The translations under genes and the position numbers were made by a program. A stretch of 37,455 nucleotides of DNA from Betaproteobacteria bacterium. GTDB lineage: Bacteria > Pseudomonadota > Gammaproteobacteria > Burkholderiales > SG8-41. The DNA lies in contig JAIOOZ010000304.1 of the NCBI GenBank assembly GCA_021414185.1, forward strand, positions 1 through 37,455, in the 5' to 3' direction. This document shows, one piece after another, positions 15,701 to 29,975 of this stretch; the first letter of the stretch is position 1, and every line of letters begins with the position of its first letter. A model generated the notes under the pieces. That model was not told the DNA's origin and searched no databases. It was given only the letters and a program-made list of their open reading frames with translations.

Positions 15701-18700
15701 CTACTTCGCGCCGTCTCCGACCAGCGAGAACGGCGCCCAGAACATCGGGTGCGCATAGGAGTAACGCATTTTGCCGCTGTTGTCGCTCGCGCCCGGCCCG
15801 TCGATTAACGCGAGCATGGCCTGACGCAGCGCTTGCGCGCGGGTGAGATTCGGGTCTTGCATCTGCCGCCGGAACAACTCGGTGGTCAACAAGCGCGCCG
15901 AGACGGATTCCACGGGCCAGTTGGAAACCAGCAGCGCTCGCGCGCCGGCGTAGAAAAACGCGCGCCCGAGTCCCGACACTGCCTCGCTGCCCGCGCCGTC
16001 GCCCGCCGCAGTGTTGCACGCCGAGAGCACCACCCAGTCGGCGTTGAGCTTGAGCGCCAGGATCTCGTCCATGCTGAGCAGCCCGTCGCCGTCGCCGTCG
16101 GCAACCGCCGGCGCCGACAACGCCAGCGCCGGCTGCGTCAAGCCGTCGAGATCGCCCGGCACCAGTCCGTGGGTCGCAAACGCGATCACGCGCCGGTTCG
16201 ACAGATCCATGCGCTTCACCGTGCGCTCGCTCGCCGTCTGGCCGAGGAAAACATCCTGTGCAGGGTCGGCCTTCAAGGCCTGCGCTATTTCACGAATTTC
16301 ATCGGCGGTGTCGGGCAGGCGGGCCAGTTGCGCGAGCGTCGATGAATTCGCCACGTGCTTCCCCACCACGGAAGGTGGTGCACCCGCCTCACTTGCCGGC
16401 AGGCCGTCCATCGACGACGCCGTGGCTTCCACGCGCGCGATCGCGAGGTTACGCAGTCCGAGGTCCGCGCTTGCCAGTTGCACGCGGCTTTCACGAGCCG
16501 CTTGCGCTTGCTGCTCCTTGCTGAAGTACGGATCGCCGAAGCCGGCGAAGGCACGTCGCGCCGCATCCCCCGGCGGCAGCTTGCGCAGGGTTACCAGCGT
16601 GTTGACCGACGGCAATTGCGTGATCGCCACGCGCCGCACCAGCCACGGCACCGCCTTGTACTGCGCGAACATGACGCTGGTGCCGCCGGCTTCAGCAGCG
16701 GCGCCGGTCGGCAACAGCGCGAATGGAAGCTGCCCCAGCGCACCGTGCGGCACGATCAACAGGCTCTGCGCATCCTTCCACGCGGGCTCCACCGGCTTGA
16801 GTAACGCGTCGTAGACCTGTTGCCCGCGCGCAAGATCGAAGCTCGGTATTTGCGCGAGCCCGGTCGCGCCCGAATCGAGCGCCCTGCGTAACCTCCCCAC
16901 GATATCGATAAACTGCGCTTCGCCGAGTGGTGCCATGGCCAAAACGGGCTCGCCCTGCCGGGGTACTGCCCACACGTAAGTCTGGTCCGCGCCGACGTAG
17001 ATCGAGATCAGGGTCTCGCCCGCCTGCAATGCGGCCTGCGCTTCGCGCACCGTGGTGGGCTTGGGGTCGATCAGATTGGCATAGTCGGGAAAGCGCCGCT
17101 CAATTTCGGTCCGCAGTTGCGCGCGCTCGCTGCGCAACGCTACGATCGCGGCACGCATATCGGCCACCACCTTCGGCAACTGCTGGTCGCGTGGCGCCGA
17201 CGCGAGCCGGTTCACCAGGTCCGTCAACACGCCAAGGCGATGCTGGCCATCCTGTTCGCGGCGCGCGAGTTCAGCCAACTGCGGGTCGCGGATCGAAGCG
17301 CGCGTGGCGCTCGAGCTCAACGCGCGCTGCACCTGGCTGCCGCGCGCCACGTCGGCAAGACGGAACGATTCGGCCACCGCTTCCTGACCGGGAGACCCCT
17401 GGGTCAGCAGTGCAATGTACGCTTCCAGGATGCGCGTGAGTCGCAGCGCGCGCGCAATACCGCTGCTTTCTTCGCCGCCCTGCTCCTGGCGCGCAAGTTG
17501 CAGCAGTACCGGCACCGCCATTGCGAATTCCCGCGATGCCCCCGCGCGGTCCCCGCTCGCGGCAAGCGCGATGGCGAGATACCCGCGCAACTCCGCGACC
17601 GAGTAGTCCTGATCACCCAGCCGCGCGCGCGCCGTATCGAACAGTTGCTGCAGCATCGCCGCCGCTTTGGCGGCCTCGCCCGTCATCGTCAGCGCATAGC
17701 CCCAGTTCAGATCGCCAGTGCCGAACTTTTGCAGCAGCAACGGATCACGCGCGAGCCCTTCCTGCATCGCTTCGTACACTGGCAGCGCCTCGCGATACTT
17801 GCCCTGCGCGACGAGCGTCGCGCCGTAGATCTTGCGTGTTTCGGCGAGCCTGATCGATTCAGGAACGACGCCAGTCTTCTCAAGGGTGTCGACCGCGATG
17901 CGCGAAAGCGACTCTGCCTCGCGATAGCGGCCTTGCTCGGACACGACGCGCGCGAGCCGGCCCACAGTAGAGGCGCTGGCCGTCGAAAAGCGTCCGAAAA
18001 GGCGCAGATTGCGCATCAGCACATCGCGATAGGCGGCTTCCGCATCGGCGAGCCGGCCAAGTTGCACTAGCGCGTCGGCGCGATCCTGCTCCTGGAGGTT
18101 TCGGAAAAAGTGGAATTGCCCGGGCGTCCCGAGTTCGCCGCCCCTTTTTTTGATGAGGCCCAAATAGGCTTCCTGGTTTTCATCCATCAGCGCCACCGCC
18201 TTCCCGTAGGCCTGCGCCGCTGCCGCATATTTACCCTCGGCAAGGGCAACGTCTCCCCGCGTGCGCTCGACCGTGGCGCCAAAACGGCGCCGGTACGCCA
18301 CGTCCCAACTCGACATGGACGACAACGATCTCTCCGCCAGCGCGAGGCTTTCTTTTGCCGTGGCGAGGTCGCCGAGGGCCGCGTTGATGCTGGCGACACC
18401 CTGATAAGCAGCGATCAAAAAGGCAGGGTTTGGACGCGCCGTTGAGCGCGTCACGCTCAGCAATTGCTCGGACAGGCGCAGTGCATTGACATAGTTACCC
18501 CCGCCCCGTTCCATTATCGACAGCTCGAACAGCACGCGGCCTTCGATATTGGAGTCTGGTTGCCCGCCAAGACCGCTCGTCATGCCTTTCGCGTGCTCGG
18601 CGGCGATGCGCAAGTCGGCAATGTGGCTGCTCATCATGCCGAGTTCCCCGCGCGCGCGGGAGCGCTCGAAATAGAACCGCGCGAGCGCCGCCTTGTCGGC

Positions 18701-18970
18701 GCCCGCCGGCGGCTCGAGATTCGCCGCCTCTGTCGCGCGCGCTATCCTGGCTGGATCCGGCTGGTAGCTGTCGAGCAGCGCGTTGATGTCTTCGATGTTG
18801 CGCGGTGGCGCGGGGTAGCGACCGGACACTACGGATTCAAGATCCGCCGCCGGGAGCGGCTGCGCGCCCGCTGCCGAGCCGGCCGGCAGGCCACCCGCGG
18901 TCAGCGCAACCAGCGCAATGCACAGGCCCTGCGGGAAAATCTGGCGACGGCGGCTGGATGTCGGGTTCAT
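15701..18970 (-). CDS. exported TPR-repeat / CHAT-domain (caspase-fold) protein
   Basis: 1089 aa. The N-terminal signal has an RRR n-region (MNPTSSRRRQIFPQGLCIALVALTAGGLPAGSAAGA). About 600 aa of helical TPR-like repeats follow. The C-terminal CHAT core has the dyad contexts IAFATHG (His codon 16169..16171) and VVLSACNTAAGD (Cys codon 16016..16018). Strong SD GGAGGAGGG. Confidence 0.85.
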   Translation of the reverse strand: MNPTSSRRRQIFPQGLCIALVALTAGGLPAGSAAGAQPLPAADLESVVSGRYPAPPRNIEDINALLDSYQPDPARIARATEAANLEPPAGADKAALARFYFERSRARGELGMMSSHIADLRIAAEHAKGMTSGLGGQPDSNIEGRVLFELSIMERGGGNYVNALRLSEQLLSVTRSTARPNPAFLIAAYQGVASINAALGDLATAKESLALAERSLSSMSSWDVAYRRRFGATVERTRGDVALAEGKYAAAAQAYGKAVALMDENQEAYLGLIKKRGGELGTPGQFHFFRNLQEQDRADALVQLGRLADAEAAYRDVLMRNLRLFGRFSTASASTVGRLARVVSEQGRYREAESLSRIAVDTLEKTGVVPESIRLAETRKIYGATLVAQGKYREALPVYEAMQEGLARDPLLLQKFGTGDLNWGYALTMTGEAAKAAAMLQQLFDTARARLGDQDYSVAELRGYLAIALAASGDRAGASREFAMAVPVLLQLARQEQGGEESSGIARALRLTRILEAYIALLTQGSPGQEAVAESFRLADVARGSQVQRALSSSATRASIRDPQLAELARREQDGQHRLGVLTDLVNRLASAPRDQQLPKVVADMRAAIVALRSERAQLRTEIERRFPDYANLIDPKPTTVREAQAALQAGETLISIYVGADQTYVWAVPRQGEPVLAMAPLGEAQFIDIVGRLRRALDSGATGLAQIPSFDLARGQQVYDALLKPVEPAWKDAQSLLIVPHGALGQLPFALLPTGAAAEAGGTSVMFAQYKAVPWLVRRVAITQLPSVNTLVTLRKLPPGDAARRAFAGFGDPYFSKEQQAQAARESRVQLASADLGLRNLAIARVEATASSMDGLPASEAGAPPSVVGKHVANSSTLAQLARLPDTADEIREIAQALKADPAQDVFLGQTASERTVKRMDLSNRRVIAFATHGLVPGDLDGLTQPALALSAPAVADGDGDGLLSMDEILALKLNADWVVLSACNTAAGDGAGSEAVSGLGRAFFYAGARALLVSNWPVESVSARLLTTELFRRQMQDPNLTRAQALRQAMLALIDGPGASDNSGKMRYSYAHPMFWAPFSLVGDGAK

Positions 18971-19113: not shown

Positions 19114-20259
19114 TCAGCGCTCATTGCGAGTGAGCTTCCATTGCAGCAGCAGCATTCCGCCAAGCGCGCACACAGCCGCGCCGCTGAACGTACTCACCGC
19201 GCCGAAATGCTCCCATGCATATCCCGCGTACAACCCGCCCAGCGTGCCGCCCAAGCCGAATGTGAGGCTGGTGTAAATCGCCTGGCCACGCGCCTGGTTG
19301 CGGCCGCGGAAAAAGCGGTGCACGTAACCGAGTGCCGCCGCATGAAACGAGCCGAAGGTCGCGGCATGCAACGTTTGCGCGATCAGCAGCAACGCCAGGT
19401 TGTCGCCGCAGGATGCGATGATCGCGAAGCGGATGGCGGCGAGCCCGAAACTGGCAATCAGCACCTGGCGCAGCGTAAAAGCGCGGAACAAATGCGCCAT
19501 CCAGAAGAAAATCGCGATTTCGCAGATCACGCCCAGCGACCACAGCCAGCCGACCGCGCCCTTGGTGTAACCGTAGCCAACCAGGTGGATCGAGTAGAAC
19601 GTGTAATACGGCCCGTGCGCAACCGCCATCAGCGCGCACGCCACGATCAACGCAATGACCTGCGGCTCGCGCATGACGTGCGCAATCGGCGTGTGATCGT
19701 GCGCATGCGCCTCCTGCGGCGCTTCGGGAACCAGCAACAGCAATATGGTTACGCCGGCGAGGATCGCCAGCATGATCCACAGCAGCACGGCAATTGGCAC
19801 GACGTCGAGCACGTAACCCACGATCAGCACCGCTGCGATGAAGCCGAGCGAGCCCCACACGCGGATGCGCCCATACTCCGTGCTGCGCGCACCGAGATGC
19901 GAAAGTGTCGTGAGTTCGACCTGCGGCAGCGCCGCGCTCAGAAAAAAACTCATCAGCAACACGATGGCGAACAACGCTTCGAAGCTCTGGGCGGCAAACA
20001 GTCCGCAGTAGACCGCGGTACCGATGGCGGTGCAGATACGCGCAACGCGCAAGCGATGTCCGCCGTGATCGGCGAGCCATCCCCACAAATGCGGCGCGAC
20101 GATACGCACCAGTTGCGGCAGCGCCAGGATCGCGCCGATCCCGGCGGCAGCGATGCCGAGCGAACTCAGGTAAAGGCTGAAATACGGCGCGAACGCACCG
20201 AGATAGGCGAAGTAGAAAAAATAAACGCCGGCGAGCCGCCAATAAGGCAATGCGTGCAT
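19114..20259 (-). CDS. MFS transporter (PPP / HcaT-like subfamily)
   Basis: 381 aa with about 12 hydrophobic segments. The N-terminus WRLAGVYFFYFAYLGAFAPYFSLYL is typical of the MFS_1_like/HcaT group. The subfamily assignment is from memory. Confidence 0.75.
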   Translation of the reverse strand: MHALPYWRLAGVYFFYFAYLGAFAPYFSLYLSSLGIAAAGIGAILALPQLVRIVAPHLWGWLADHGGHRLRVARICTAIGTAVYCGLFAAQSFEALFAIVLLMSFFLSAALPQVELTTLSHLGARSTEYGRIRVWGSLGFIAAVLIVGYVLDVVPIAVLLWIMLAILAGVTILLLLVPEAPQEAHAHDHTPIAHVMREPQVIALIVACALMAVAHGPYYTFYSIHLVGYGYTKGAVGWLWSLGVICEIAIFFWMAHLFRAFTLRQVLIASFGLAAIRFAIIASCGDNLALLLIAQTLHAATFGSFHAAALGYVHRFFRGRNQARGQAIYTSLTFGLGGTLGGLYAGYAWEHFGAVSTFSGAAVCALGGMLLLQWKLTRNER

Positions 20260-20292: not shown

Positions 20293-21456
20293 TCACGCTT
20301 CGTCGGGATCGGGGTTCTCGGTGGCAGCCGCCGCGCGCAGTCGCGCGACCACGTCGCCCGGCGCCTGCGCCGCAATTTTCGGCGTCGCGCACTGCACATC
20401 GCCGTTTTGCGCGCGATGGCGCAATGCGTGGTCCATCAGGGTCAATGCCAGCATCGCTTCGCAAATCGGCGTCGCGCGTATGCCGACGCAGGGATCGTGC
20501 CGCCCGTGCGTCTCGATGGTCGTCGCATTGCCTGCCTTGTCGATAGTGCGGCGAGTGAGCCGTATGCTGGACGTCGGCTTGACGGCAACATTGACGATGA
20601 CATCCTGCCCGGTCGAAATGCCGCCGAGTATGCCGCCCGCATTGTTGGTGAGAAAACCCTGCGGCGACATCTCGTCGGAATGCTCGGTGCCTTTTTGCGC
20701 GACCGCCGCGAAACCGGCGCCGATCTCCACGCCTTTGACGGCGTTGATGCTCATCATGTTGTACGCGATATCGGCATCGAGCTTGTCGTACACCGGCTCG
20801 CCCCAGCCGACCGGCACGCCGGACGCAATGGTGGTGATTTTCGCGCCGACCGAATTACCGGACTTGCGCAGCTTGTCCATGAATTCTTCGAGCTGCGGCA
20901 CGGCGTCCGCATCCGCGACGAAAAACGGGTTGCTGCCAACGACATCCCAGGTTTTGAACGGCACTTCAAGCGGCCCCAGTTGCGACAGATAGCCGCGCAC
21001 CACGATCCCGTATTTTTCACGCAGCCATTTTTTCGCCACCGCCGCCGCGGCAACGCGCACCGCGGTCTCGCGCGCCGATTGCCGTCCGCCGCCGCGATAA
21101 TCGCGGATGCCGTACTTCTGCCAGTAGGTGTAATCGGCGTGGCCGGGACGAAACGAGTCCTTGATCTTCGAATAGTCTTTGCTTTTCGCATCCACGTTGC
21201 GGATCAGCAATCCGATCGGCGTGCCGGTCGTCTTGCCTTCGAACACGCCGGACAATATCTCGACGATGTCGTCCTCGCGGCGCTGCGTGACGTGGCGCGA
21301 GGTGCCGGGCTTGCGGCGGTCTAGATCGAGCTGGATATCGGCTTCCGACAATTCCATCCCCGGCGGGCAACCGTCAACCACGCAGCCGATCGCCGGCCCG
21401 TGACTCTCGCCGAACGAAGTCACGCAAAACAGTTTGCCGAGTGTGCTGCCTGACAT
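20293..21456 (-). CDS. aroC: chorismate synthase
   Basis: 387 aa, [33 protein letters not shown]...RHDPCVG. Confidence 0.95.
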
Positions 21457-21513: not shown

Positions 21514-22953
21514 CTACTTCGCCGCGTCGTCGCGCTCCGCCGCTTTGGCGCCTGCCGCCAGCTGGCGCATCAGCCGCCAAGCCATCGCGCCAAGTATCAG
21601 CACGCCGACGACCAGCGCGCCCCACAGGCTCCAGCGCTTCCAGTCGATGGCCGCGCGCAAGCGCTCGGCCCCGCCGAGTTCGTTTTGCGGAAAAGCCGCC
21701 GCATGACGCACGTTTACTTTTTGCGCAGCGGAAGTTTTCGCGGCCTTGATCGATTGGACCGCGTCTTCGCGGTAGCCCGGCACCAGCGTCTCGATCGCAA
21801 AAGCCGCGGGCTTCGCGCCGCCATTGCCGTACGCCAGCAGGAAGGGCGGCGCGCCGCGCGCGCTGAACACCAGGCGGTGCGGCAGCCAGCCCGCCTGTAT
21901 CTGCGGCAGGCCGGACCCGATGCCGCCGCCGCGCTGATCGACGCGCAAGAGCCAGTAACGGTCGGCCGTCACGCCGATGGCAAGGTCAGGGCTGGTGATT
22001 TCGCCACTCTGCTGGCGCAAGCGGTAAGCAACACCGCGCGCCACCGTGCGCCACGACTTTTCGGTCGCGTCCCGCGCCAGCAGTTCGAACTGCGCGACGG
22101 TATTCAGCTCCGGCAACTCGAAACGGATACGGTCTATCGGCGCATGGGCGCGCGTATCGAACACGTATTCGCCGGGTTTCTCGCCCTGCACTGCTTTGAA
22201 CGGCGCCCATTCGCGCGGAACATCGACGACCTTGTCGGCAAGCTCCCCGCGCACCATGGTGAGTTCAGGCTCAGCCTGCCCCCTGCCGTCGGCGAGCCAC
22301 GACAAGCGCAGATATTTCAGCTTCTGCTGCGGCAGCTCGATGCGCTTCTGTTCCAGCTTCTGGCCGCCGACTTCCAGACTGAGCAGGGGCGCGCCCGTAA
22401 CCAGCGGGCGCCATGCTGCGAGGTCATCGCTGCCATCGACCCTGAGCTTGCCCGAAAATCCGCCCGCCTCTGCTTTCCAATCCACGTCGAGCGCGCGCAA
22501 CGCGCGTTCGAGCGCCGTATTGTCGATGAGATAACCGGCCACGCGCGACTGCTTGTCGCTCGGACGCGCACCGCCGGAGGACATGACATTCACGCTCACG
22601 GCGCCGCCTGCGCTGCGTTGCACGCGGATCGACAGGGCATCAACGTTCTCGCCGGACTGTGCGCGCAACGGGAACAAAGTGAGTTTCTGCAGCGGCTGCG
22701 CCTCGCTGCTGGTCGCGCGACGCGGCCGCCACGCATGCGGCACCACCTCGCCGGCTCCGTTGAACACGCGCACATCGCCGAGGTCCGCGCGCGCAACGCC
22801 TTCGTACAGCGTCACCGGCGCCACTACTTCGTAAAGCGCTTCGCTGCCGTCGGCGTCGATAACGGCGCCGTACGCAAAGTCGGCGGGCTGCTCCGCGGCC
22901 AATGCAGGCGCCGCACAAAACATCGCTATCCCGGCAATGGTCCACGCTTTCAT
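21514..22953 (-). CDS. DUF3999-like exported protein with C-terminal membrane anchor
   Basis: The real start is the internal ATG 22953..22951 of the 940-aa track ORF, preceded by AAGGAGGA. The sequence begins MKAWTIAGIAMFCAAPALAAEQPADFAYGAVID...DLGDVRVFNGAGEVVPHAW. The C-terminal TM is WSLWGALVVGVLILGAMAW. The start overlaps the upstream stop (ATGA). The family call is from memory of sequence character. Confidence 0.7.
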   Translation of the reverse strand: MKAWTIAGIAMFCAAPALAAEQPADFAYGAVIDADGSEALYEVVAPVTLYEGVARADLGDVRVFNGAGEVVPHAWRPRRATSSEAQPLQKLTLFPLRAQSGENVDALSIRVQRSAGGAVSVNVMSSGGARPSDKQSRVAGYLIDNTALERALRALDVDWKAEAGGFSGKLRVDGSDDLAAWRPLVTGAPLLSLEVGGQKLEQKRIELPQQKLKYLRLSWLADGRGQAEPELTMVRGELADKVVDVPREWAPFKAVQGEKPGEYVFDTRAHAPIDRIRFELPELNTVAQFELLARDATEKSWRTVARGVAYRLRQQSGEITSPDLAIGVTADRYWLLRVDQRGGGIGSGLPQIQAGWLPHRLVFSARGAPPFLLAYGNGGAKPAAFAIETLVPGYREDAVQSIKAAKTSAAQKVNVRHAAAFPQNELGGAERLRAAIDWKRWSLWGALVVGVLILGAMAWRLMRQLAAGAKAAERDDAAK

Positions 22954-25841
22954 GCGGAATCCTCCTTGGTTTTGGGCGGCACCGGCGCGAAGTAGCCGAT
23001 CACGATCACCAGCAAGCCGACGCCGATGAACGATACCCAGCGTTCGACCGTGCCCGAATTGGCGAGGTCGATCAGAAAGAGCTTCACGATCACAGCGCCG
23101 AGCAGCGTCGCCCCGACCGCCCACAGCCCGCGCAACTGGCGGCGCGTTGCCATCACCATGGCGACCAGCGCGAGCAATGTCCAGAACAACGAGAACGCCG
23201 CCTGCACCAGCACCGAACGCATCATCGCGTCGAATCGGAATGGCACGTCCGCGTAATGGTGCAACGTGCGCAGCAGCACGCCATTCAGCGCAACAAAGGT
23301 AATCGCACCCAGCAGCTTGAGCGCAGCATTGGGGTCCGGCAAAGTCGCATCGGACAGGTCCAGTCGGCGCATGCCGATGAACCAGCTCACGATCGCCAAT
23401 AGCGCGCCCGCCTGCGCAAGATCGAGCGGATTCAGCAGCGGCACGTACGGCAGAGGCGCAGGATCGCCGTTGCTCGCGAAGTTCACGAAAAGTACCCAGC
23501 CCAGCAGGAAGACCGCCAGCGGCAGCGCGCCCGCATATAGATAGGCATGACGGTGCGCGGCGACCGGCCAGCCCAGGCGTTCGCCGCGCGCAGCGAACAG
23601 CGTTACCAGCGCACCGGGCACCAGCGCCCACGCAATCAGCGGCCACACGCGCCGGCCCTCGACATAGTGGTCGATCTGCCAGCCAACTTCCCACGACAAC
23701 ACGACCGCAAGCAACCAGAATCCCGCCGCGTGCAACCGCTCGAGCTGCGTCTGGTTGCGTCCTTTGTGCAGCTTCAGCACGTACAGATGCACTGCGAAGG
23801 CAACAATCCAGCCTATCCACGCCTGGGCCGCGAATGGATGCGGCTGCGCGCCCGGCGCCATGAACGTCCACAATAAAACCAGTGTAGACAGCGGCACGCT
23901 GGCCAGCGCGACAAAACGCGCCGCATTCCAGACGAGGCCGCGCCACAACAGCGCGAACATGGCGCAAGTGCCGGCGAAGAACAGTAACTGCGGATGGAGT
24001 CCCCAGGCATGGGGCGCGTGGCGCTCGATCTCCAGCAGTCCCGCACCGAACCACCACAAGACGCCCCAGATGAAAAGCACGCTGGCCGCTCCGAGCTCCG
24101 TCGCCGTCACACTTTCCGAATTTCTTTGCAGGTAATAGCTGCAGAACAACCCCCCCGCGCTGACCATGACGGCGCCGAGGTAAGCGCTGTTGAGTATCGG
24201 TGTTGCGCCGAACGGGCCGTGTCCTGCAAGAAAGGCAATGCCGGCGGCGATCTGCAACAGCAAGCCGAACGCGCGCGCAAGCGGACGTCCCTGGCGCACG
24301 CCGGTCCACACGATGGCCGCACCTTCGACCGCCCATACGGCAGAAGTGAGCCGGCCTTCAAACGCCAGCGGTACCGCGAGCGTCGCAAAGCCGACGCCGA
24401 GCGCCAGAAACGATTCGACGAGCAGCACCAGCGTTTGCTGCTTGCGCGCATAAAGAATAGTGGCCAGCGCGAGATAAAAGGCTGCCAGCGCGAACGCGCT
24501 CCACGCCGCGCCGAATTCCATGTCGCGCACGAGCGCGGTCTGCATACCGAAGGCAATCAGCGGCGTGCCGAACACCAGCGTGCCATCGACGTAATGCGTG
24601 AGCCGCGGCGCCTGGCGCAATGCGAACAGCACTGCGATTGCGACGTAGAACAGGAAAAACAAAATCAGAAAAGGCTCGGTCGTGGCGTAGAGTTCCGGCC
24701 GGTAATACTTGGAGCCCCACGCCAGCCCGATCACGAACGTGAACAGGAATCCGACCAGATTGAGTTCGCGCCATGACTTGTAGAACGCGATGACCAATAT
24801 GCCGACATCCAGCACCGCATAAAAACTGAACAGCGCAACGTGGCTGCCGCCGCCGGTGGACGTGAGTACCGGGGCGAGAAAACCGCCGATGACGCCCGTG
24901 ATCGCCAGAGTGCGCGAATCCTGCAGCACGGCAAGCGCGGCCGAAAATACGGCAACACCCGTCAGCACGACAAATGCAAACGTCGGCGGCAACAGGTGGT
25001 AGAGCCGCAGTGCCGCAAACACCGTCAGGTACATCAGCCCGATGCCGCCGCCCTGCAGCGCCAGCGCGTAACCGCTGCGCCGCTCGCGCAACCGCCAGCC
25101 GAACATGAGCAACGCAATCGCACCAACCGCCACCGCGGCGAGCCGCAGCTCGATTGGCACGATGTCGCGTTCGGCCGCGTACTTGAGCAAAAATGCGACG
25201 CCGAAAAACAACACGATGACGCCAATGCGCACCAGCGTGTTGCCGCCAAACAGCCACCGGGTCACCGGGTTGTCGGTGAGCAGATCCGGCTGCGTGGCGG
25301 CAGGCGTAGACGGGCCCTCCTGCGACGTAACGCGCTCGGCCGCAGGAGTCGGCGCGAGCGGCGAGGTAGCGAGCCCCTCCATTGCGATTGCCTCTTCGAC
25401 CGTAATCTCAGAACGCTGCACGATTGCAGCCGCTACCGGTGGCGTCGGTGGAGTGTAATCCGCAGGACGTCCGCCCGGATCCGGAATAGCGCCGTACTGC
25501 GTACCGCCGGAAGTCACGGTACTACCTTGCGCGTCTGGCGCAGTAGCCTGCTGAATTCCCGGCTTCTCGAGCGCAACCAGCCGCGAATGAATGTCCGCGA
25601 GCGATTTGTATATGTTGTCGACCTGGCGCTCGATATACGCGAGGCGTGTTGCAGTATCGTTCTGCGACGCGCCGGAGATCGTATCTGCGGTCCGTGCGGA
25701 TTCCCCTGTGCCCACATCCGACTTGGCAGACGCGCCCAGCGCCGCGCCGACTATCGTGCCCAGTATTGCGCCAAGAAACGCGGTGCCGAAACCACCCAGC
25801 GAACCGATCAGGCCGCCGATCACCAATCCTGCGAACCACAT
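22950..25841 (-). CDS. DUF2339-like giant polytopic membrane protein
   Basis: 963 aa. N-terminal glycine-zipper helix (GLVIGGLIGSLGGFGTAFLGAILGTIVGAALGA), a short coiled segment, a Pro/Thr linker, then about 25 hydrophobic segments by eye. SD AAGGAGGGG. Confidence 0.75.
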   Translation of the reverse strand: MWFAGLVIGGLIGSLGGFGTAFLGAILGTIVGAALGASAKSDVGTGESARTADTISGASQNDTATRLAYIERQVDNIYKSLADIHSRLVALEKPGIQQATAPDAQGSTVTSGGTQYGAIPDPGGRPADYTPPTPPVAAAIVQRSEITVEEAIAMEGLATSPLAPTPAAERVTSQEGPSTPAATQPDLLTDNPVTRWLFGGNTLVRIGVIVLFFGVAFLLKYAAERDIVPIELRLAAVAVGAIALLMFGWRLRERRSGYALALQGGGIGLMYLTVFAALRLYHLLPPTFAFVVLTGVAVFSAALAVLQDSRTLAITGVIGGFLAPVLTSTGGGSHVALFSFYAVLDVGILVIAFYKSWRELNLVGFLFTFVIGLAWGSKYYRPELYATTEPFLILFFLFYVAIAVLFALRQAPRLTHYVDGTLVFGTPLIAFGMQTALVRDMEFGAAWSAFALAAFYLALATILYARKQQTLVLLVESFLALGVGFATLAVPLAFEGRLTSAVWAVEGAAIVWTGVRQGRPLARAFGLLLQIAAGIAFLAGHGPFGATPILNSAYLGAVMVSAGGLFCSYYLQRNSESVTATELGAASVLFIWGVLWWFGAGLLEIERHAPHAWGLHPQLLFFAGTCAMFALLWRGLVWNAARFVALASVPLSTLVLLWTFMAPGAQPHPFAAQAWIGWIVAFAVHLYVLKLHKGRNQTQLERLHAAGFWLLAVVLSWEVGWQIDHYVEGRRVWPLIAWALVPGALVTLFAARGERLGWPVAAHRHAYLYAGALPLAVFLLGWVLFVNFASNGDPAPLPYVPLLNPLDLAQAGALLAIVSWFIGMRRLDLSDATLPDPNAALKLLGAITFVALNGVLLRTLHHYADVPFRFDAMMRSVLVQAAFSLFWTLLALVAMVMATRRQLRGLWAVGATLLGAVIVKLFLIDLANSGTVERWVSFIGVGLLVIVIGYFAPVPPKTKEDSA

Positions 25842-25885
25842 GGCCCCTCCTTTCCGGATGCGAATCTCAGAATGCGGTTAGAGAA

Positions 25886-27766
25886 TTATTTCCAGTCGCC
25901 GCGCAATACGGCAATGCGCTGCTGCAGGTACTCGGGCGTTGCCTGCTGCGGCGGCACCGGCGCGGCGACGACCAGTGATATTTTTTTGAATAGCGCGATG
26001 CGCGAGAGATTGGACATGGCGCGGCCATCCATGCGGCTGAAAAAGCTGCCCCACAAGCCGCGCAGCGCCATCGGCACCACCGGCACCGGCGTGCGCTCGA
26101 GTATCTGGGTAACGCCTGGCTTGAACGGGTACATCTCGCCGGTGTTCGTCATATAGCCCTCGGGAAATATGCAGATCAGATCGCCGGCGATAAGGCCCGC
26201 CGCAATATCGTCGTAGGCCTTTTCCAGCAACCGCGGGTCTTCCTTGCGCGTGGCGATCGGAATGGTTTTACCGGTGCGAAAAATGAATTTGAGCACGGGA
26301 ATCTGGAAGTTCTTGTAATACATGACGAAGCGGATCGGTCGGCGGCATGCCGCCGCGATGATCAGCGCATCGACGTAGCTCACGTGATTGCACACCAACA
26401 CCGCCGGCCCTTCTTCCGGAATGTTCTCCACGCCGCTTGTGTCGAGGCGGTAGATCGAATGCACCAGCAGCCAAATCAGGAAGCGCATCAGGAATTCGGG
26501 CACCAGCGAGAAGATGTAGATCGCGACCGCGGCATTGAGCAGCGCCGTAATCAGGAAGAGCTGCGGAATGGTGATGCCGGCATTGAGCAGCACGACGGCC
26601 ATGATTGCCGACGCCACCATGAACAACGCATTGAGGATGTTGTTGCCGGCGATGATGCGCGACTGATGACTGCGTTCGGCGCGGCTCTGGATCAGCGCAT
26701 ACAAAGGCACGATATAAAAGCCACCGAACACGCCGATCATGACAAGGTCGAACAGGATGCGCCAGTTGGCGGGATGCGCCAGGAACTGCATCGCCCCCAT
26801 GTGCTCCGTCACCGCCGTCGGGCTGGCAAAATAAAGGTCGAGCGCGAACAACGTGAGGCCTATGGAGCCGAACGGCACGAGACCTATTTCCACCTTGTGG
26901 CCCGACAGGCGTTCGCACAACAACGAGCCCGCGCCGACGCCAATGGAAAAAGTGGTAAGCATCACCGTCGCGACATGCTCGTCGCCGCCCAGCACGTCCT
27001 TGCAATAGTTCGGAAACTGCGCGAGCAGCGTGGCGCCATAAAACCAGAACCACGAGATGCCCAGCACCGAGAGGAACACCGTGCGGTTCTGCCGCGTGAA
27101 CTGCAGATTCGCCCACGTTTCGGTGAACGGGTTCCAGTTGATCTTGAGATCGGGCGCCGCCGGCGGCGCGCTCGGTACCGCGCGGCTCGTGAGATAACCC
27201 GCGCATGCTATTGCAATCACCGTAACCGAGACCAGCATGGCCGAGTTTTCCTGCGCGATAAGCACGCCGCCCAGCACGGTGCCGATCAAAATGGCGAGAA
27301 AGGTGCCGGACTCCACCAATCCGTTGCCGCCGACGAGCTCCTCGACTTTCAGGTGCTGGGGCAGGATCGAATACTTGACCGGCCCGAATATCGTCGAATG
27401 CAGCCCCATCAGAAACAGCGCGCCGATGAGTAAAGTCAGGTTCTTATTCAGGAAACCGGCCGCGCCTATCACCATGATGACGATTTCGAGCAGCTTCACG
27501 TAACGGATGATGCGCGACTTCTCGTATTTGTCGGCGAGCTGGCCGGCGGTCGCGGAAAACAGAAAGAACGGCAGGATGAAGAGTCCCGCGCACAGGTTCA
27601 CGAGCGTGCCGGAATTCAGCGTCGTGAGCGTTGCGGCATGAAACGCCAGCATGATAACGAGCGCGTTTTTGTACACGTTGTCGTTGAACGCGCCGAGAAA
27701 CTGCGTGCAGAAAAACGGCAGAAAACGCCGTTCGCGCATGAGACTGAACTGGTTCTGCCCGGACAT
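25886..27766 (-). CDS. fusion of LplT-type MFS lysophospholipid transporter and PlsC-family acyltransferase
   Basis: 626 aa. The N-terminal MFS part resembles LplT (RFLPFFCTQFLGAFNDNVYKNAL). The C-terminal part carries the acyltransferase H(X)4D box (CNHVSYVD) and the FPEG box (IFPEGYMTNTGE). SD AAGGAGAA. Confidence 0.8.
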   Translation of the reverse strand: MSGQNQFSLMRERRFLPFFCTQFLGAFNDNVYKNALVIMLAFHAATLTTLNSGTLVNLCAGLFILPFFLFSATAGQLADKYEKSRIIRYVKLLEIVIMVIGAAGFLNKNLTLLIGALFLMGLHSTIFGPVKYSILPQHLKVEELVGGNGLVESGTFLAILIGTVLGGVLIAQENSAMLVSVTVIAIACAGYLTSRAVPSAPPAAPDLKINWNPFTETWANLQFTRQNRTVFLSVLGISWFWFYGATLLAQFPNYCKDVLGGDEHVATVMLTTFSIGVGAGSLLCERLSGHKVEIGLVPFGSIGLTLFALDLYFASPTAVTEHMGAMQFLAHPANWRILFDLVMIGVFGGFYIVPLYALIQSRAERSHQSRIIAGNNILNALFMVASAIMAVVLLNAGITIPQLFLITALLNAAVAIYIFSLVPEFLMRFLIWLLVHSIYRLDTSGVENIPEEGPAVLVCNHVSYVDALIIAAACRRPIRFVMYYKNFQIPVLKFIFRTGKTIPIATRKEDPRLLEKAYDDIAAGLIAGDLICIFPEGYMTNTGEMYPFKPGVTQILERTPVPVVPMALRGLWGSFFSRMDGRAMSNLSRIALFKKISLVVAAPVPPQQATPEYLQQRIAVLRGDWK

Positions 27767-27800
27767 CCGCGGTTCTCCTTGTCAAATTGCGTGTTGCAGA

Positions 27801-29486
27801 CTATGCCTTGCGTGCGCGCCTGCGCCGAACTGCGCGCACGCCAAGAATGCCGGCGAGCAACAACCCTGCGGTGACCGGCAGCGCCCCGTTGTTCTGCGTT
27901 GCGGGTTCGGTCGCGGCGCTGACAAATTCGGACGGAAATGGCCGCGGACCGACCGGCACGATCTTCCACTGCGCGCGGTCTGCCGGTGTGCGCTGCATAT
28001 ACTCGTCGATAGAGGCGACCGGGAAGCTGCCAACGGCGCGGCTCGACGGAATCTGCGGTATGCGCACGAAAATGATCGCCTCGACTTCGCTCTTCAGCAA
28101 TTCTTCATACGCGCTGGCGGCAGACCGGCCCGCAGGCTGCGCGCCAACGAGCTGCAGCAGATCGTTGCCTATCGCATCGAACGCGACTGCCGGGTACAAA
28201 CGCGTCTGTTCCTCGCTCAGGTAGTCGAACGAGCTCTTGCCGCTGTCGAAGCTCATCTCCTTGAGCGCCATGTACGGATACGCCGCGGCCGCTTTCGCGT
28301 AGCTCGTCGCGCCTCGCGCCGGGATGTTCCAGCCCAGCGACCGCAGCGTGTCGATGCTGATCCCCGCGCAATTCGCACCCGCGTGCCGGTAGCGGAAATC
28401 ATGGCGATAAAAATGGTTGTAGACCCGCGCGATGGCGCCCTGATACGCAAACACGGCGCGATCGCTGCGCATGAGTGCTACCAGCATATAAGAAGGCCGG
28501 TAATACGCCTGCCCGCTGTTCAAATCCATCAGGTAGTTGTCCATCGGCACCATCGAAGCGACGATGCCTTTTTCGCTGAACGAATCGAGGTTGTAAAAAT
28601 TGTTGACCAGCCAGTCGCTCCATTCGCCGCGGGCGTTGCCGCGGCCCGTCACGATTGCGAAATGTCCGCCGTGCGCCTCGTCGTCGTCGCCTTGCGAGCC
28701 GTTGAGCATCACGCCCAGTGCGGCAAGTTGGTCCCAGTTGCGCGGTTGCCCTGGAGTCCGCTCCCACAACAGACGTGTTTCATAGCGGGGCGCGCTGTCG
28801 GCTTGCCGCACGAGTCCGCTCAACGTCTCTCCCGCGGCCAGCGGCGAAAGTTTGCTCGCGGCGGCATCGATGACGTAATCCTGCGGCCAGATGGTGCGCG
28901 CAGTCACCGCCGGCTTGCCGTCAACGCCTTGCGCGACAGTGCCGCGAATGCGCAGCGGGCGTTGCGTGAAAAACTTCGCGGTACTCGCATCGTAATACGA
29001 GAGATTGGCCGGGATTTTCGGCGTCACCGCGAAGCGCGTGACGGTACCATCAGCGAGTCGCAACGCGTTGCCGGACTCCTGCAACCTCGCGTCTGTAATT
29101 ACACTGGGCGATCCGACCCATATCAGCGGCGGGCGCGCCTGTAACTCCTCCGGACCCGCCGCGGCGTACCAGCGCCGCACATCTTCTTTGGCCGCAACGC
29201 CGTCTGTAAATCCGGCGACTTTGGCGCCCGGCCCCGGCACCGCGATGAGATCGTCACGGAAATACCACAACGCTTCTTTTGGCGTCGGGCAATCCGCGCA
29301 GGTACCCGGCACCAGGCGAAAGTCGGCGGCAGGAAACAAACCGAGGCTGCCGGCGGCCAGCGCGGGCCGCACGGCGGGCTCTGCTTTCCCGGCTGCCACT
29401 GACGAGGCTGCATTGGCTGCACCCGACGCCGACAGCCAAACCAGCACGTTGGCAATTACTGTTCTGAGGAAACCCGGTTTCAACAT
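27801..29486 (-). CDS. exported protein of unknown family with a C-terminal TM plus Arg-rich tail
   Basis: Start chosen at internal Met 29 (ATG 29486..29484, SD AAGGGGAG), which gives a signal peptide MLKPGFLRTVIANVLVWLSASGAANA. There is a CADC pair near the N-terminus. Motifs are HGGHFAIVTG (His codon 28662..28664) and HAGANCAGISID (Cys codon 28368..28370). The C-terminus is PVTAGLLLAGILGVRAVRRRRARKA. Confidence 0.7.
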   Translation of the reverse strand: MLKPGFLRTVIANVLVWLSASGAANAASSVAAGKAEPAVRPALAAGSLGLFPAADFRLVPGTCADCPTPKEALWYFRDDLIAVPGPGAKVAGFTDGVAAKEDVRRWYAAAGPEELQARPPLIWVGSPSVITDARLQESGNALRLADGTVTRFAVTPKIPANLSYYDASTAKFFTQRPLRIRGTVAQGVDGKPAVTARTIWPQDYVIDAAASKLSPLAAGETLSGLVRQADSAPRYETRLLWERTPGQPRNWDQLAALGVMLNGSQGDDDEAHGGHFAIVTGRGNARGEWSDWLVNNFYNLDSFSEKGIVASMVPMDNYLMDLNSGQAYYRPSYMLVALMRSDRAVFAYQGAIARVYNHFYRHDFRYRHAGANCAGISIDTLRSLGWNIPARGATSYAKAAAAYPYMALKEMSFDSGKSSFDYLSEEQTRLYPAVAFDAIGNDLLQLVGAQPAGRSAASAYEELLKSEVEAIIFVRIPQIPSSRAVGSFPVASIDEYMQRTPADRAQWKIVPVGPRPFPSEFVSAATEPATQNNGALPVTAGLLLAGILGVRAVRRRRARKA

Positions 29487-29627
29487 TTCGCACTCCCCTT
29501 GAGCGACCTCTTTTTTCCGCCATGCTAACCGCATATTCGCACTTCCGCATGAACGCTGCCAATCGGGCAACGATTTCCCGTGCTTAATGTTGCTGGCATA
29601 CCGACATTGCCAATTTGCGCCGTGCTC

Positions 29628-29939
29628 TTACACGTTTTTCTTGATGTAGCCGATCACCGTTTCCATCGCGTCGACCAGAAAATCCTTGTTGATCCAGAAA
29701 TACACTTCCTTGCCTTCTTTCAGGCTTTGCAGAACGCCCGCCTCGCGAAGTATGCGCAGGTGATGCGACACCGCGGTGCGGCTCAACGTGGACACGTCGA
29801 CGATCTGGCCGATGTTCAGGCGCTCGCCGGGCTCGAAAGTAAGCAGGATGCGCTGGCGATGCTCGTCGCCCAGCGCGGCATACACCTTGGAAATATTGCG
29901 CCACTCGCGGGGAATGGCACGCATGTAGTTCTTATACAT
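29628..29939 (-). CDS. ArsR/SmtB-family winged-helix transcriptional regulator (no cysteines)
   Basis: 103 aa from ATG 29939, MYKNYMRAIPREWRNISKVYAALGDEHRQRILL... with HTH IGQIVDVSTLSRTAVSHHLRILREAGVL. The protein contains no Cys. An alternative start is at 29924. Confidence 0.8.
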   Translation of the reverse strand: MYKNYMRAIPREWRNISKVYAALGDEHRQRILLTFEPGERLNIGQIVDVSTLSRTAVSHHLRILREAGVLQSLKEGKEVYFWINKDFLVDAMETVIGYIKKNV

Positions 29940-29957
29940 AACTACATTATTAGTTAT
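29938..29957. promoter_or_regulatory. perfect 7-6-7 inverted repeat (candidate ArsR operator)
   Basis: ATAACTA-CATTAT-TAGTTAT. It spans the -10 box through the first bases of the arsR-family ORF, in a locally AT-rich patch. Confidence 0.5.
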
Positions 29958-29975
29958 ATAGTTTTGTTCTGTCAA
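29946..29975 (-). promoter_or_regulatory. candidate sigma70 promoter of the arsR-family gene
   Basis: Minus strand reads TTGACA (29975..29970), an 18-nt spacer, then AATAAT (29951..29946). The A of ATG 29939 lies 7 nt after the -10 box. Confidence 0.5.

Follow-up and report, generated by a model that had tools for sequence, protein, structure and literature searches.

A candidate lysophospholipid-repair operon with an unannotated, periplasm-facing protein on a betaproteobacterial chromosome

How are lysophospholipids cleared from the envelope of Gram-negative bacteria? To our knowledge, LplT/Aas is the only route that has been characterised. In Escherichia coli it is composed of LplT, a flippase of the major facilitator superfamily (MFS), and Aas, a separate PlsC-type acyltransferase that also carries an acyl-ACP (acyl carrier protein) synthetase, or AMP-binding, domain (Harvat 2005; Lin 2018; PMC11416262). 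In Pseudomonas aeruginosa, Aas has been studied together with the Arc3 proteins (Ting et al. 2022, eLife, PMC8926400; also PMC12663445). Here, we analyse a stretch of 37,455 nucleotides (the window) from a betaproteobacterium of the Burkholderiales (assembly GCA_021414185.1, contig JAIOOZ010000304.1), on whose minus strand homologues of LplT, the acyltransferase and the Arc3 proteins lie in a single five-gene array, behind the gene of an ArsR-type regulator and together with that of a 561-amino-acid protein, labelled p561 here. With moderate confidence, we read this array as a chromosomal operon that handles lysophospholipid damage in the envelope.

In PMC8926400, Arc3A (PA5114) is defined by PF10101 (DUF2339), and its gene is the one that matters most for the survival of P. 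aeruginosa attacked by Tle3, a phospholipase of the type VI secretion system; arc3A mutants build up lyso-phosphatidylethanolamine (lyso-PE) and monolyso-cardiolipin, and Aas and Arc3A are additive. Arc3B (PA5113), defined as the PF13163 (DUF3999) protein encoded beside the Arc3A gene, co-purifies with Arc3A; its described topology combines an N-terminal lipidation for the outer membrane with a C-terminal inner-membrane helix, and a bridging of the two membranes has been proposed. The LplT-acyltransferase of the same organism, PA3267, is one polypeptide that lacks the acyl-ACP synthetase part, and in many bacteria such aas genes often adjoin arc3 (PMC8926400). Protection against two lipases, TseL and Tle1, has also been reported for arc3A and aas (PMC12663445).

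Arc3 and Aas homologues behind an ArsR-type regulator gene

All five genes of the array are on the minus strand. Its first gene, arsR (29628-29939), encodes a 103-aa winged-helix protein of the ArsR/SmtB family, and is followed by p561 (27801-29486; 561 aa, exported), an Aas-type fusion of LplT and acyltransferase (25886-27766; 626 aa), the DUF2339 gene (22950-25841; 963 aa) and the DUF3999 gene (21514-22953; 479 aa). An earlier note on this stretch, made from the letters alone, had described five same-strand genes with gaps of 141, 34, 44 and -4 nt, counted from arsR, and with strong Shine-Dalgarno (SD) sequences on the last four. This description was reproduced, the SD sequences being AAGGGGAG for p561, AAGGAG for the fusion, AAGGAG for DUF2339 and AAGGAGG for DUF3999. 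No terminator-like site was detected by a terminator scan in any intergenic gap of the array, and the region as a whole shows no excess of such sites (18, against 14.6 +/- 4.3 by chance). The short gaps, the 4-nt overlap, the strong SD sequences and the terminator-free gaps support an operon structure, and the array is probably transcribed as a single arsR-p561-aas-arc3AB message from one autoregulated promoter.

Every domain that the earlier note had named was recovered with Pfam and NCBIfam, and p561 matched neither library. The fusion contains MFS_1 (E=8.5e-22) in an LplT-like domain of residues ~19-430 and Acyltransferase (PF01553, E=3e-26) at residues 442-568, with NHVSYVD, read in the translation, as the HX4D motif of the PlsC type. 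It aligns with the LplT model NF008397 over residues 14-414 (E=1.4e-33), where its 116.6 bits do not reach 297, the cut-off for a full-length equivalog, and with positions 3-599 of the 1140 positions of PRK06814 (578.9 bits, cut-off 1349). Pfam gave no match to an acyl-ACP synthetase (AMP-binding) domain in this protein, and the corresponding part of PRK06814 is left uncovered. The DUF2339 protein matches PF10101 over residues 199-955 (E=7e-182) and is a polytopic membrane protein with more than 20 hydrophobic segments on the Kyte-Doolittle scale. The start of the DUF3999 gene (PF13163, E=3e-114) overlaps the stop of this gene by 4 nt, such that the two are adjacent, as the definition of Arc3B demands. 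The DUF3999 protein has a C-terminal transmembrane (TM) helix at 443-461 and an N-terminal signal peptide, MKAWTIAGIAMFCAAPALAAEQ, in which the sequence AMFC differs from a canonical lipobox.

Judging from these matches, three of the five genes, aas, arc3A and arc3B, are the published lysolipid defence and repair pair, since DUF2339 is Arc3A, DUF3999 is Arc3B and the adjacency of aas and arc3 has been noted before. The earlier note had stated that three of the five components were without published function, which is wrong for these two DUF families (PMC8926400); its idea of a lysolipid-related system, on the other hand, fits the published experiments on Arc3 and Aas (PMC8926400, PMC12663445). 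The locus shares with P. aeruginosa the giant polytopic DUF2339 protein with its adjoining DUF3999 protein, as well as an LplT-acyltransferase in one polypeptide without the acyl-ACP synthetase; with E. coli it shares an MFS flippase and a PlsC-type acyltransferase, whose genes are adjacent or fused, whereas the E. coli Aas is a separate protein with the AMP-binding domain that the window gene lacks. The locus also differs from that of P. aeruginosa, where the aas gene (PA3267) lies apart from arc3AB and Gac/Rsm exerts the control, whereas in the window the genes are contiguous behind the gene of an ArsR-type repressor. In addition, Arc3B of the window has a signal peptide without canonical lipobox, and p561 is inserted between the regulator gene and aas; the available parts of PMC8926400 and PMC12663445 mention no p561 counterpart. 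What appears to be new is, first, that Gac/Rsm control is replaced by an ArsR-type autoregulator of the genes' own and, second, that LplT/Aas has in p561 a periplasmic partner that is widespread and unannotated. A natural operon of arc3AB and aas, with its own repressor gene and p561, would offer a cleaner setting than that of Pseudomonas with its scattered genes and global Gac/Rsm control.

In the closest long relative among the loci collected for this study (L002 11535-15693), the LplT-PlsC and AroC proteins are 82% and 94% identical to those of the window, whereas the DUF2339 protein encoded between them, of 1114 aa, is merely 35-39% identical, and is followed by a 278-aa protein of the Ceramidase family (PF05875) where the window has DUF3999. 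The window arc3AB are nearer to the copies of more distant relatives (62-64%). This looks like a possible cassette swap, a turnover that is typical of defence genes.

The ArsR protein matches HTH_5 (PF01022, E=9e-9) in Pfam and passes the generic NCBIfam model NF033788 (58.8 bits, cut-off 55), and it stays far under the cut-offs of all the sensor-specific equivalog models there; its closest solved structures are Lmo1102, SmtB, ArsR, CadC and HlyU. The earlier note had called it cysteine-free, with an operator-like palindrome at 29938-29957, and both statements hold. With zero Cys among 103 aa in the translation, there is no metal- or thiol-sensing Cys of the alpha-3 CXC kind or similar, so that a canonical alpha-3N metal site and a thiol-based site are impossible. 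The promoter and operator occupy 29938..29975 of the minus strand. The promoter scan gave TTGACA-18-AATAAT with 11/12 sigma-70-like matches, that is, a -35 element at 29975-29970 and a -10 element at 29951-29946, and the inverted repeat ATAACTA-n6-TAGTTAT (29957-29938), which extends to a 7-14-7 repeat at 29965-29938, overlaps it and covers the -10 element and the start codon. The palindrome occurs once in the window and 0 times in 100 shuffles, and a repeat search of the window found no second copy of the operator upstream of p561.

The ATG of arsR, at 29939, lies 6 nt past the end of the -10 element and has no SD upstream, and in 21 homologous loci from three betaproteobacterial orders TTGAC is found 35-37 nt ahead of the arsR ATG. 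Based on these three features, the arsR mRNA is probably leaderless. In 12 of these 21 loci, an inverted repeat lies between the -35 element and the ATG, and its right arm ends at the start codon or close to it; in the remaining nine, the best repeat is unrelated. The arms vary with lineage while their complementarity is kept: ATAACTA/TAGTTAT occurs in the window and its close relatives, ATAACCA/TGGTTAT in a sister clade, (T)CATGTCGA/TCGACATG(A) in Rhodocyclaceae and TTCATAACTAAA/TTTAGTTATGAA in Methylotenera, and ATGTCGA/TCGACAT is likewise among the arm pairs seen. ArsR homologues of 49-91% identity lead clusters of LplT, Aas and p561 in other lineages. The simplest reading would be autorepression of a promoter that probably drives the downstream genes too. 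Among ArsR/SmtB proteins without metal sites, HlyU and the SdpR-type autorepressors resemble this case in being winged helices of ~100 aa with an inverted-repeat operator over their own promoter. The score of the window protein against the SdpR-family model, 49.8 bits, is under the cut-off, and, unlike those cases, the window arsR mRNA appears leaderless and the right arm of its operator ends at the start codon. The operator could serve as a simple reporter for finding the signal of phospholipase damage.

Neighbourhoods of the p561 family

The neighbourhoods of 180 loci around p561 family members (numbered with L) were compared by tblastn with the window proteins and by all-against-all clustering of their open reading frames (ORFs). 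Linkage was counted for same-strand neighbours at those p561 loci that are distinct and extend at least 4 kb to either side, 75 in all. At 33 of them, p561 has an LplT-like MFS gene within 4 kb, and at 29 a PlsC domain is equally close; an arsR homologue is found within 6 kb at 20 and DUF2339 within 8 kb at 10. The earlier note had proposed conservation of the neighbourhood as the check on its idea, and p561, LplT, PlsC/Aas, arsR and DUF2339/DUF3999 do recur together, in varied orders and fusions, in betaproteobacterial orders and in Nitrospira.

The order in the window is arsR-p561-LplT/PlsC-arc3A-arc3B-aroC, with two small exported proteins after arsR in some members of its clade. It becomes arsR-Aas(PlsC+AMP-binding)-...-p561-LplT/PlsC in Rhodocyclaceae, arsR-Aas-p561-LplT in Methylotenera, arsR-Aas(PlsC+AMP-binding)-LplT-p561 in Methylophilus, arc3A-arc3B-LplT-p561 in other Methylophilaceae and Aas-LplT-p561 in Gallionellaceae. 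In Nitrospira, which belongs to another phylum (L090, L085, L095, L107), p561 follows a fusion of LplT, PlsC and AMP-binding domains of 1127-1150 aa, and is itself followed by a CdsA-like gene (CTP_transf_1) and a gene for a 210-aa PlsC protein. The AMP-binding domain that is missing from the window is thus carried in related loci by a separate Aas (Methylophilaceae, Rhodocyclaceae) or by this triple fusion. The adjacency of p561 to LplT/Aas outlasts changes of gene order, the fission and fusion of domains and the boundaries of phyla, and such persistence is strong evidence, at the level of gene neighbourhoods, that p561 is functionally coupled to LplT/Aas.

Some loci hold additional genes. 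At L009 (8637-9893), as well as at L006, L025 and L033, two more exported proteins are encoded between arsR and p561 or beside arc3A, one of ~141-159 aa without Pfam match and one of 260-272 aa with DUF2145; the window contains neither. In Methylophilaceae, a conserved membrane protein of the Sulfatase family (PF00884) of 654-662 aa follows LplT/p561 (L117 10799-12763, and also L123, L126, L137, L139 and L145), and its gene is followed by that of a ~750-aa protein; we assume that the former could be an enzyme modifying envelope lipids, LtaS/EptA-like. The Nitrospira locus L090 additionally encodes a protein with Hydrolase_4 and Methyltransf_20 domains, and the composition of the Nitrospira clusters presumably recalls that of Arc1, a P. 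aeruginosa cluster that is phospholipid-synthesis-like.

The p561 family and the proposed mechanism

At least 1960 homologues of p561 were found, all of them without Pfam domain and without informative name. They form 484 clusters at 50% identity among 1.8 billion representatives, and 456 loci were counted among one-genome-per-species contigs, mainly from Betaproteobacteria, with some from Gammaproteobacteria and Nitrospira and a few from elsewhere. Searches with family members (14, then 50 of them) against Pfam at E<=10 and NCBIfam at E<=1 returned noise only, and a profile hidden Markov model of the family found no relative among the sequences of the PDB. No homologue was found on a plasmid, and no paralogue among the 8424 ORFs of all the fetched loci. 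In a metagenome-assembled genome (MAG) of a marine Nitrospiraceae, two p561 paralogues stand in tandem (L158 5625-9452).

The N-terminus of p561 is a signal peptide, and a single TM helix at its C-terminus (535-553) is followed by RRRRARK; judging from these two elements, the bulk of the protein would face the periplasm, anchored to the inner membrane. A PEP-CTERM sorting signal, suggested by the name of one UniRef homologue, found no support in NCBIfam, and the C-terminus was taken simply for a TM anchor whose tail is rich in Arg. Among 50 sequences, H275 (in GGHFAI) is invariant and C373 (in ANC[AT]GIS) is at least 90% conserved; a conserved acidic run, GDDDE, stands beside H275, and a conserved Cys pair, C63/C66, lies in the small N-terminal region. 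In a distant clade of Methylocaldum and other Gammaproteobacteria (L154-L157), C373 is replaced by Ser (NS[ST]), the N-terminus has a lipobox-like Cys (G-C) instead of the C-terminal TM anchor, and the linkage to LplT is absent. At one of these loci (L156 9833-13037), p561 precedes a MacA/HlyD-like gene, an ORF resembling the ATPase of ATP-binding cassette (ABC) transporters and a MacB/FtsX-like gene. The exchange of Cys for Ser, together with the invariant His, suggests a candidate catalytic nucleophile and an acyl-enzyme.

A model was predicted with AlphaFold2 from the 50-sequence alignment, with a predicted local distance difference test (pLDDT) of 92.9 and a predicted template-modelling score (pTM) of 0.90; it replaced an earlier model from 14 sequences (pLDDT 65), with which Foldseek gave nothing. 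It consists of the small N-terminal region, a beta-barrel like the oligonucleotide/oligosaccharide-binding (OB) fold and a large alpha/beta core, in which H275 opens the strand 275-282 and C373 is placed at the N-terminus of the helix 373-383. Foldseek searches of the PDB with this model gave no match with E<0.1. The best papain-like matches, TseH (6v98; E=0.41, TM-score 0.33, 162 columns) and PaJOS (E=1.5), are not significant, and the OB-like barrel recurrently gave weak matches to RPA, IF1 and the N-domain of tRNA synthetases. In BFVD, the sole matches of appreciable probability (0.75-0.98, 175-211 columns) come from giant viruses of the Klosneuvirus-like kind and are uncharacterised, namely Homavirus A0A3G5A5F0, Terrestrivirus A0A3G4ZPI4 and Hyperionvirus A0A3G5AA49. 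A confident model without structural neighbour makes this large, unannotated family a good target for structural work and enzymology.

The order of the residues in p561 recalls the permuted NlpC/P60 enzymes, which include LRAT/PLAAT, YiiX, TseH, Tox-Act1 and DUF4105/Lnb and all act on lipids (PMC12994826). One of them, DUF4105/Lnb, acts as a lipoprotein N-acyltransferase, conserves a His and a Cys and occurs in contexts of lipid-metabolism genes (PMC12994826). In these enzymes, too, a His on a strand precedes by ~90-110 residues a Cys at the N-terminus of a helix. However, p561 has a much larger core, extra N-terminal domains, a C-terminal anchor and, in one clade, Ser for Cys, and no significant match of sequence, profile or fold relates it to them. 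In DUF4105 an NCT motif accompanies the conserved His, and Pfam gave no match of p561 to that family. Homology to LRAT/PLAAT was rejected after hhalign against PLAAT3 gave a probability of 4%, a weak test with an approximate single-sequence template, and so was homology to YiiX (0.15% against the E. coli protein, likewise a weak test with a single-sequence template); the best local alignment with YiiX sets its catalytic Cys on C373, which at 0.15% was not counted as evidence. Consequently, membership of p561 in this superfamily is not demonstrated by sequence or model. In the earlier note, the motifs of this protein were compared to those of thiol acyltransferases or phospholipases; the conserved His and the Cys/Ser position agree with this, but the PLAAT3 and YiiX profiles were negative and the Foldseek matches non-significant, and the resemblance stays unproven.

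How might the five proteins work together? By homology and from published work on relatives, the LplT domain would flip lysophospholipids out of the periplasmic leaflet of the inner membrane, to be re-acylated by the fused PlsC domain, and Arc3A with its partner Arc3B would limit the build-up of lysophospholipids following attack by phospholipase toxins. The cysteine-free ArsR would bind the inverted repeat over its own -10 element and start codon, repressing the leaderless arsR-p561-aas-arc3AB transcript until a signal releases it. With lower confidence, p561 would be a periplasm-facing enzyme on a C-terminal inner-membrane tether, in which H275 and C373 (Ser in one clade) would bring about an acyl-enzyme, with phospholipids or lysophospholipids as substrates; p561 would then be a lysophospholipase or transacylase, upstream of or parallel to LplT-PlsC. 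A more far-reaching proposal can be put forward only tentatively. It holds that p561 founds an unrecognised family of Cys/Ser-His enzymes, possibly with a new fold, which are tethered to the membrane, face the periplasm and act on phospholipids or lysophospholipids as a third, extracytoplasmic arm beside LplT/Aas and Arc3, and that ArsR is a membrane-damage switch replacing Gac/Rsm outside the gammaproteobacteria.

Several points weigh against this mechanism. p561 stands apart from LplT at 42 of the 75 loci, including those of Massilia, Pseudoduganella, Janthinobacterium and Casimicrobiaceae, and is therefore not an obligate partner; in Massilia sp. PAMC28688, for example, it is found between a MOSC gene and the gene of a YchF-type GTPase. 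Arc3 genes are near p561 at merely ~13% of the loci. No known enzyme family is statistically supported for p561 by Pfam, NCBIfam, hhalign or Foldseek, the co-transcription and the ArsR control of the downstream genes are what we infer from the sequence, and a second promoter may lie inside the 141-nt gap. Could the array be conserved synteny without shared function, that is, a set of independent genes that a single betaproteobacterial clade keeps between aroC and the gene of an M17 peptidase? In the closest relatives, everything from the M17 peptidase gene to the MFS gene, with arsR and aroC in between, is collinear, as would result from common descent alone, and aroC and the MFS gene do continue on the same strand without a clear terminator. 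However, the linkage of p561, LplT, PlsC/Aas, arsR and arc3 recurs in other orders of bacteria and in another phylum, with other orders of genes and without aroC or M17; the chance of finding a single-copy gene within 4 kb is estimated at far below 1%, whereas 44% was observed; and the adjacency of aas and arc3 was noted independently (PMC8926400). This explanation is largely refuted by the comparative data, and we regard it as very improbable.

The remaining alternatives concern p561 itself, and both seem unlikely to us. p561 may be non-catalytic, a periplasmic lipid-binding or scaffold protein that hands lysophospholipids to LplT or bridges the inner and outer membranes, as proposed for Arc3B, with structural or metal-binding roles for the His, the Cys and the acidic cluster. 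The OB-like barrel with its weak matches, the absence of any known hydrolase fold among the Foldseek results and the C-terminal TM tether, as in Arc3B, would suit such a protein, and GDDDE beside H275 could bind a cation, whereas an exchange of Cys for Ser, alongside a His that never varies, typically marks a nucleophile and would be unusual for a metal ligand or structural residue, and the Cys lies at the N-terminus of a helix in the model. Alternatively, p561 may produce the lysophospholipid, as a periplasmic acyltransferase that moves an acyl chain from phospholipid to an acceptor in the envelope (protein, lipid or glycan), like Lnt or Lnb, with LplT-PlsC recycling the lyso by-product. The Lnt reaction yields lysophospholipid. 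Lysophospholipid is the substrate of E. coli LplT/Aas (PMC11416262), the lipoprotein N-acyltransferase DUF4105/Lnb and p561 have the His-then-Cys order in common, and the presence of p561 without arc3 and without a nearby LplT in many genomes suits a housekeeping modification enzyme. But no relation to DUF4105, Lnt or LRAT is detectable in sequence or fold, the immediate neighbourhood of p561 holds no conserved gene for a candidate acceptor, and the association with Arc3 and a repressor suggests a stress-induced rather than a constitutive role. Whether as the hydrolase or transacylase of the mechanism that we favour or as a lysolipid-producing acyltransferase, p561 provides a concrete periplasmic candidate.

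Surroundings of the array

The genes aroC (20293-21456) and MFS_1_like (19114-20259), both on the minus strand, continue 3' of the array in the same direction, as the earlier note had remarked. They belong to the core genes that flank the array, together with those of a leuC-like aconitase, asd, FimV, a CHAT-TPR protein, an M17 peptidase, thyA, folA and an Orn/Lys/Arg decarboxylase. The G+C content is uniform over the window, with no compositional sign of an island, and the array is a chromosomal locus, not a genomic island. Its nearest relatives are uncultured Burkholderiales MAGs. Neither Rfam families nor tRNAs were found in the window. The TPR-CHAT protein (15701-18970), of 1089 aa, is encoded four genes downstream of the array. 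In the FimV-like protein of 998 aa (7920-10916), the middle region shows an AT skew of -0.42 at 9001-10000, which is probably caused by a low-complexity repeat.

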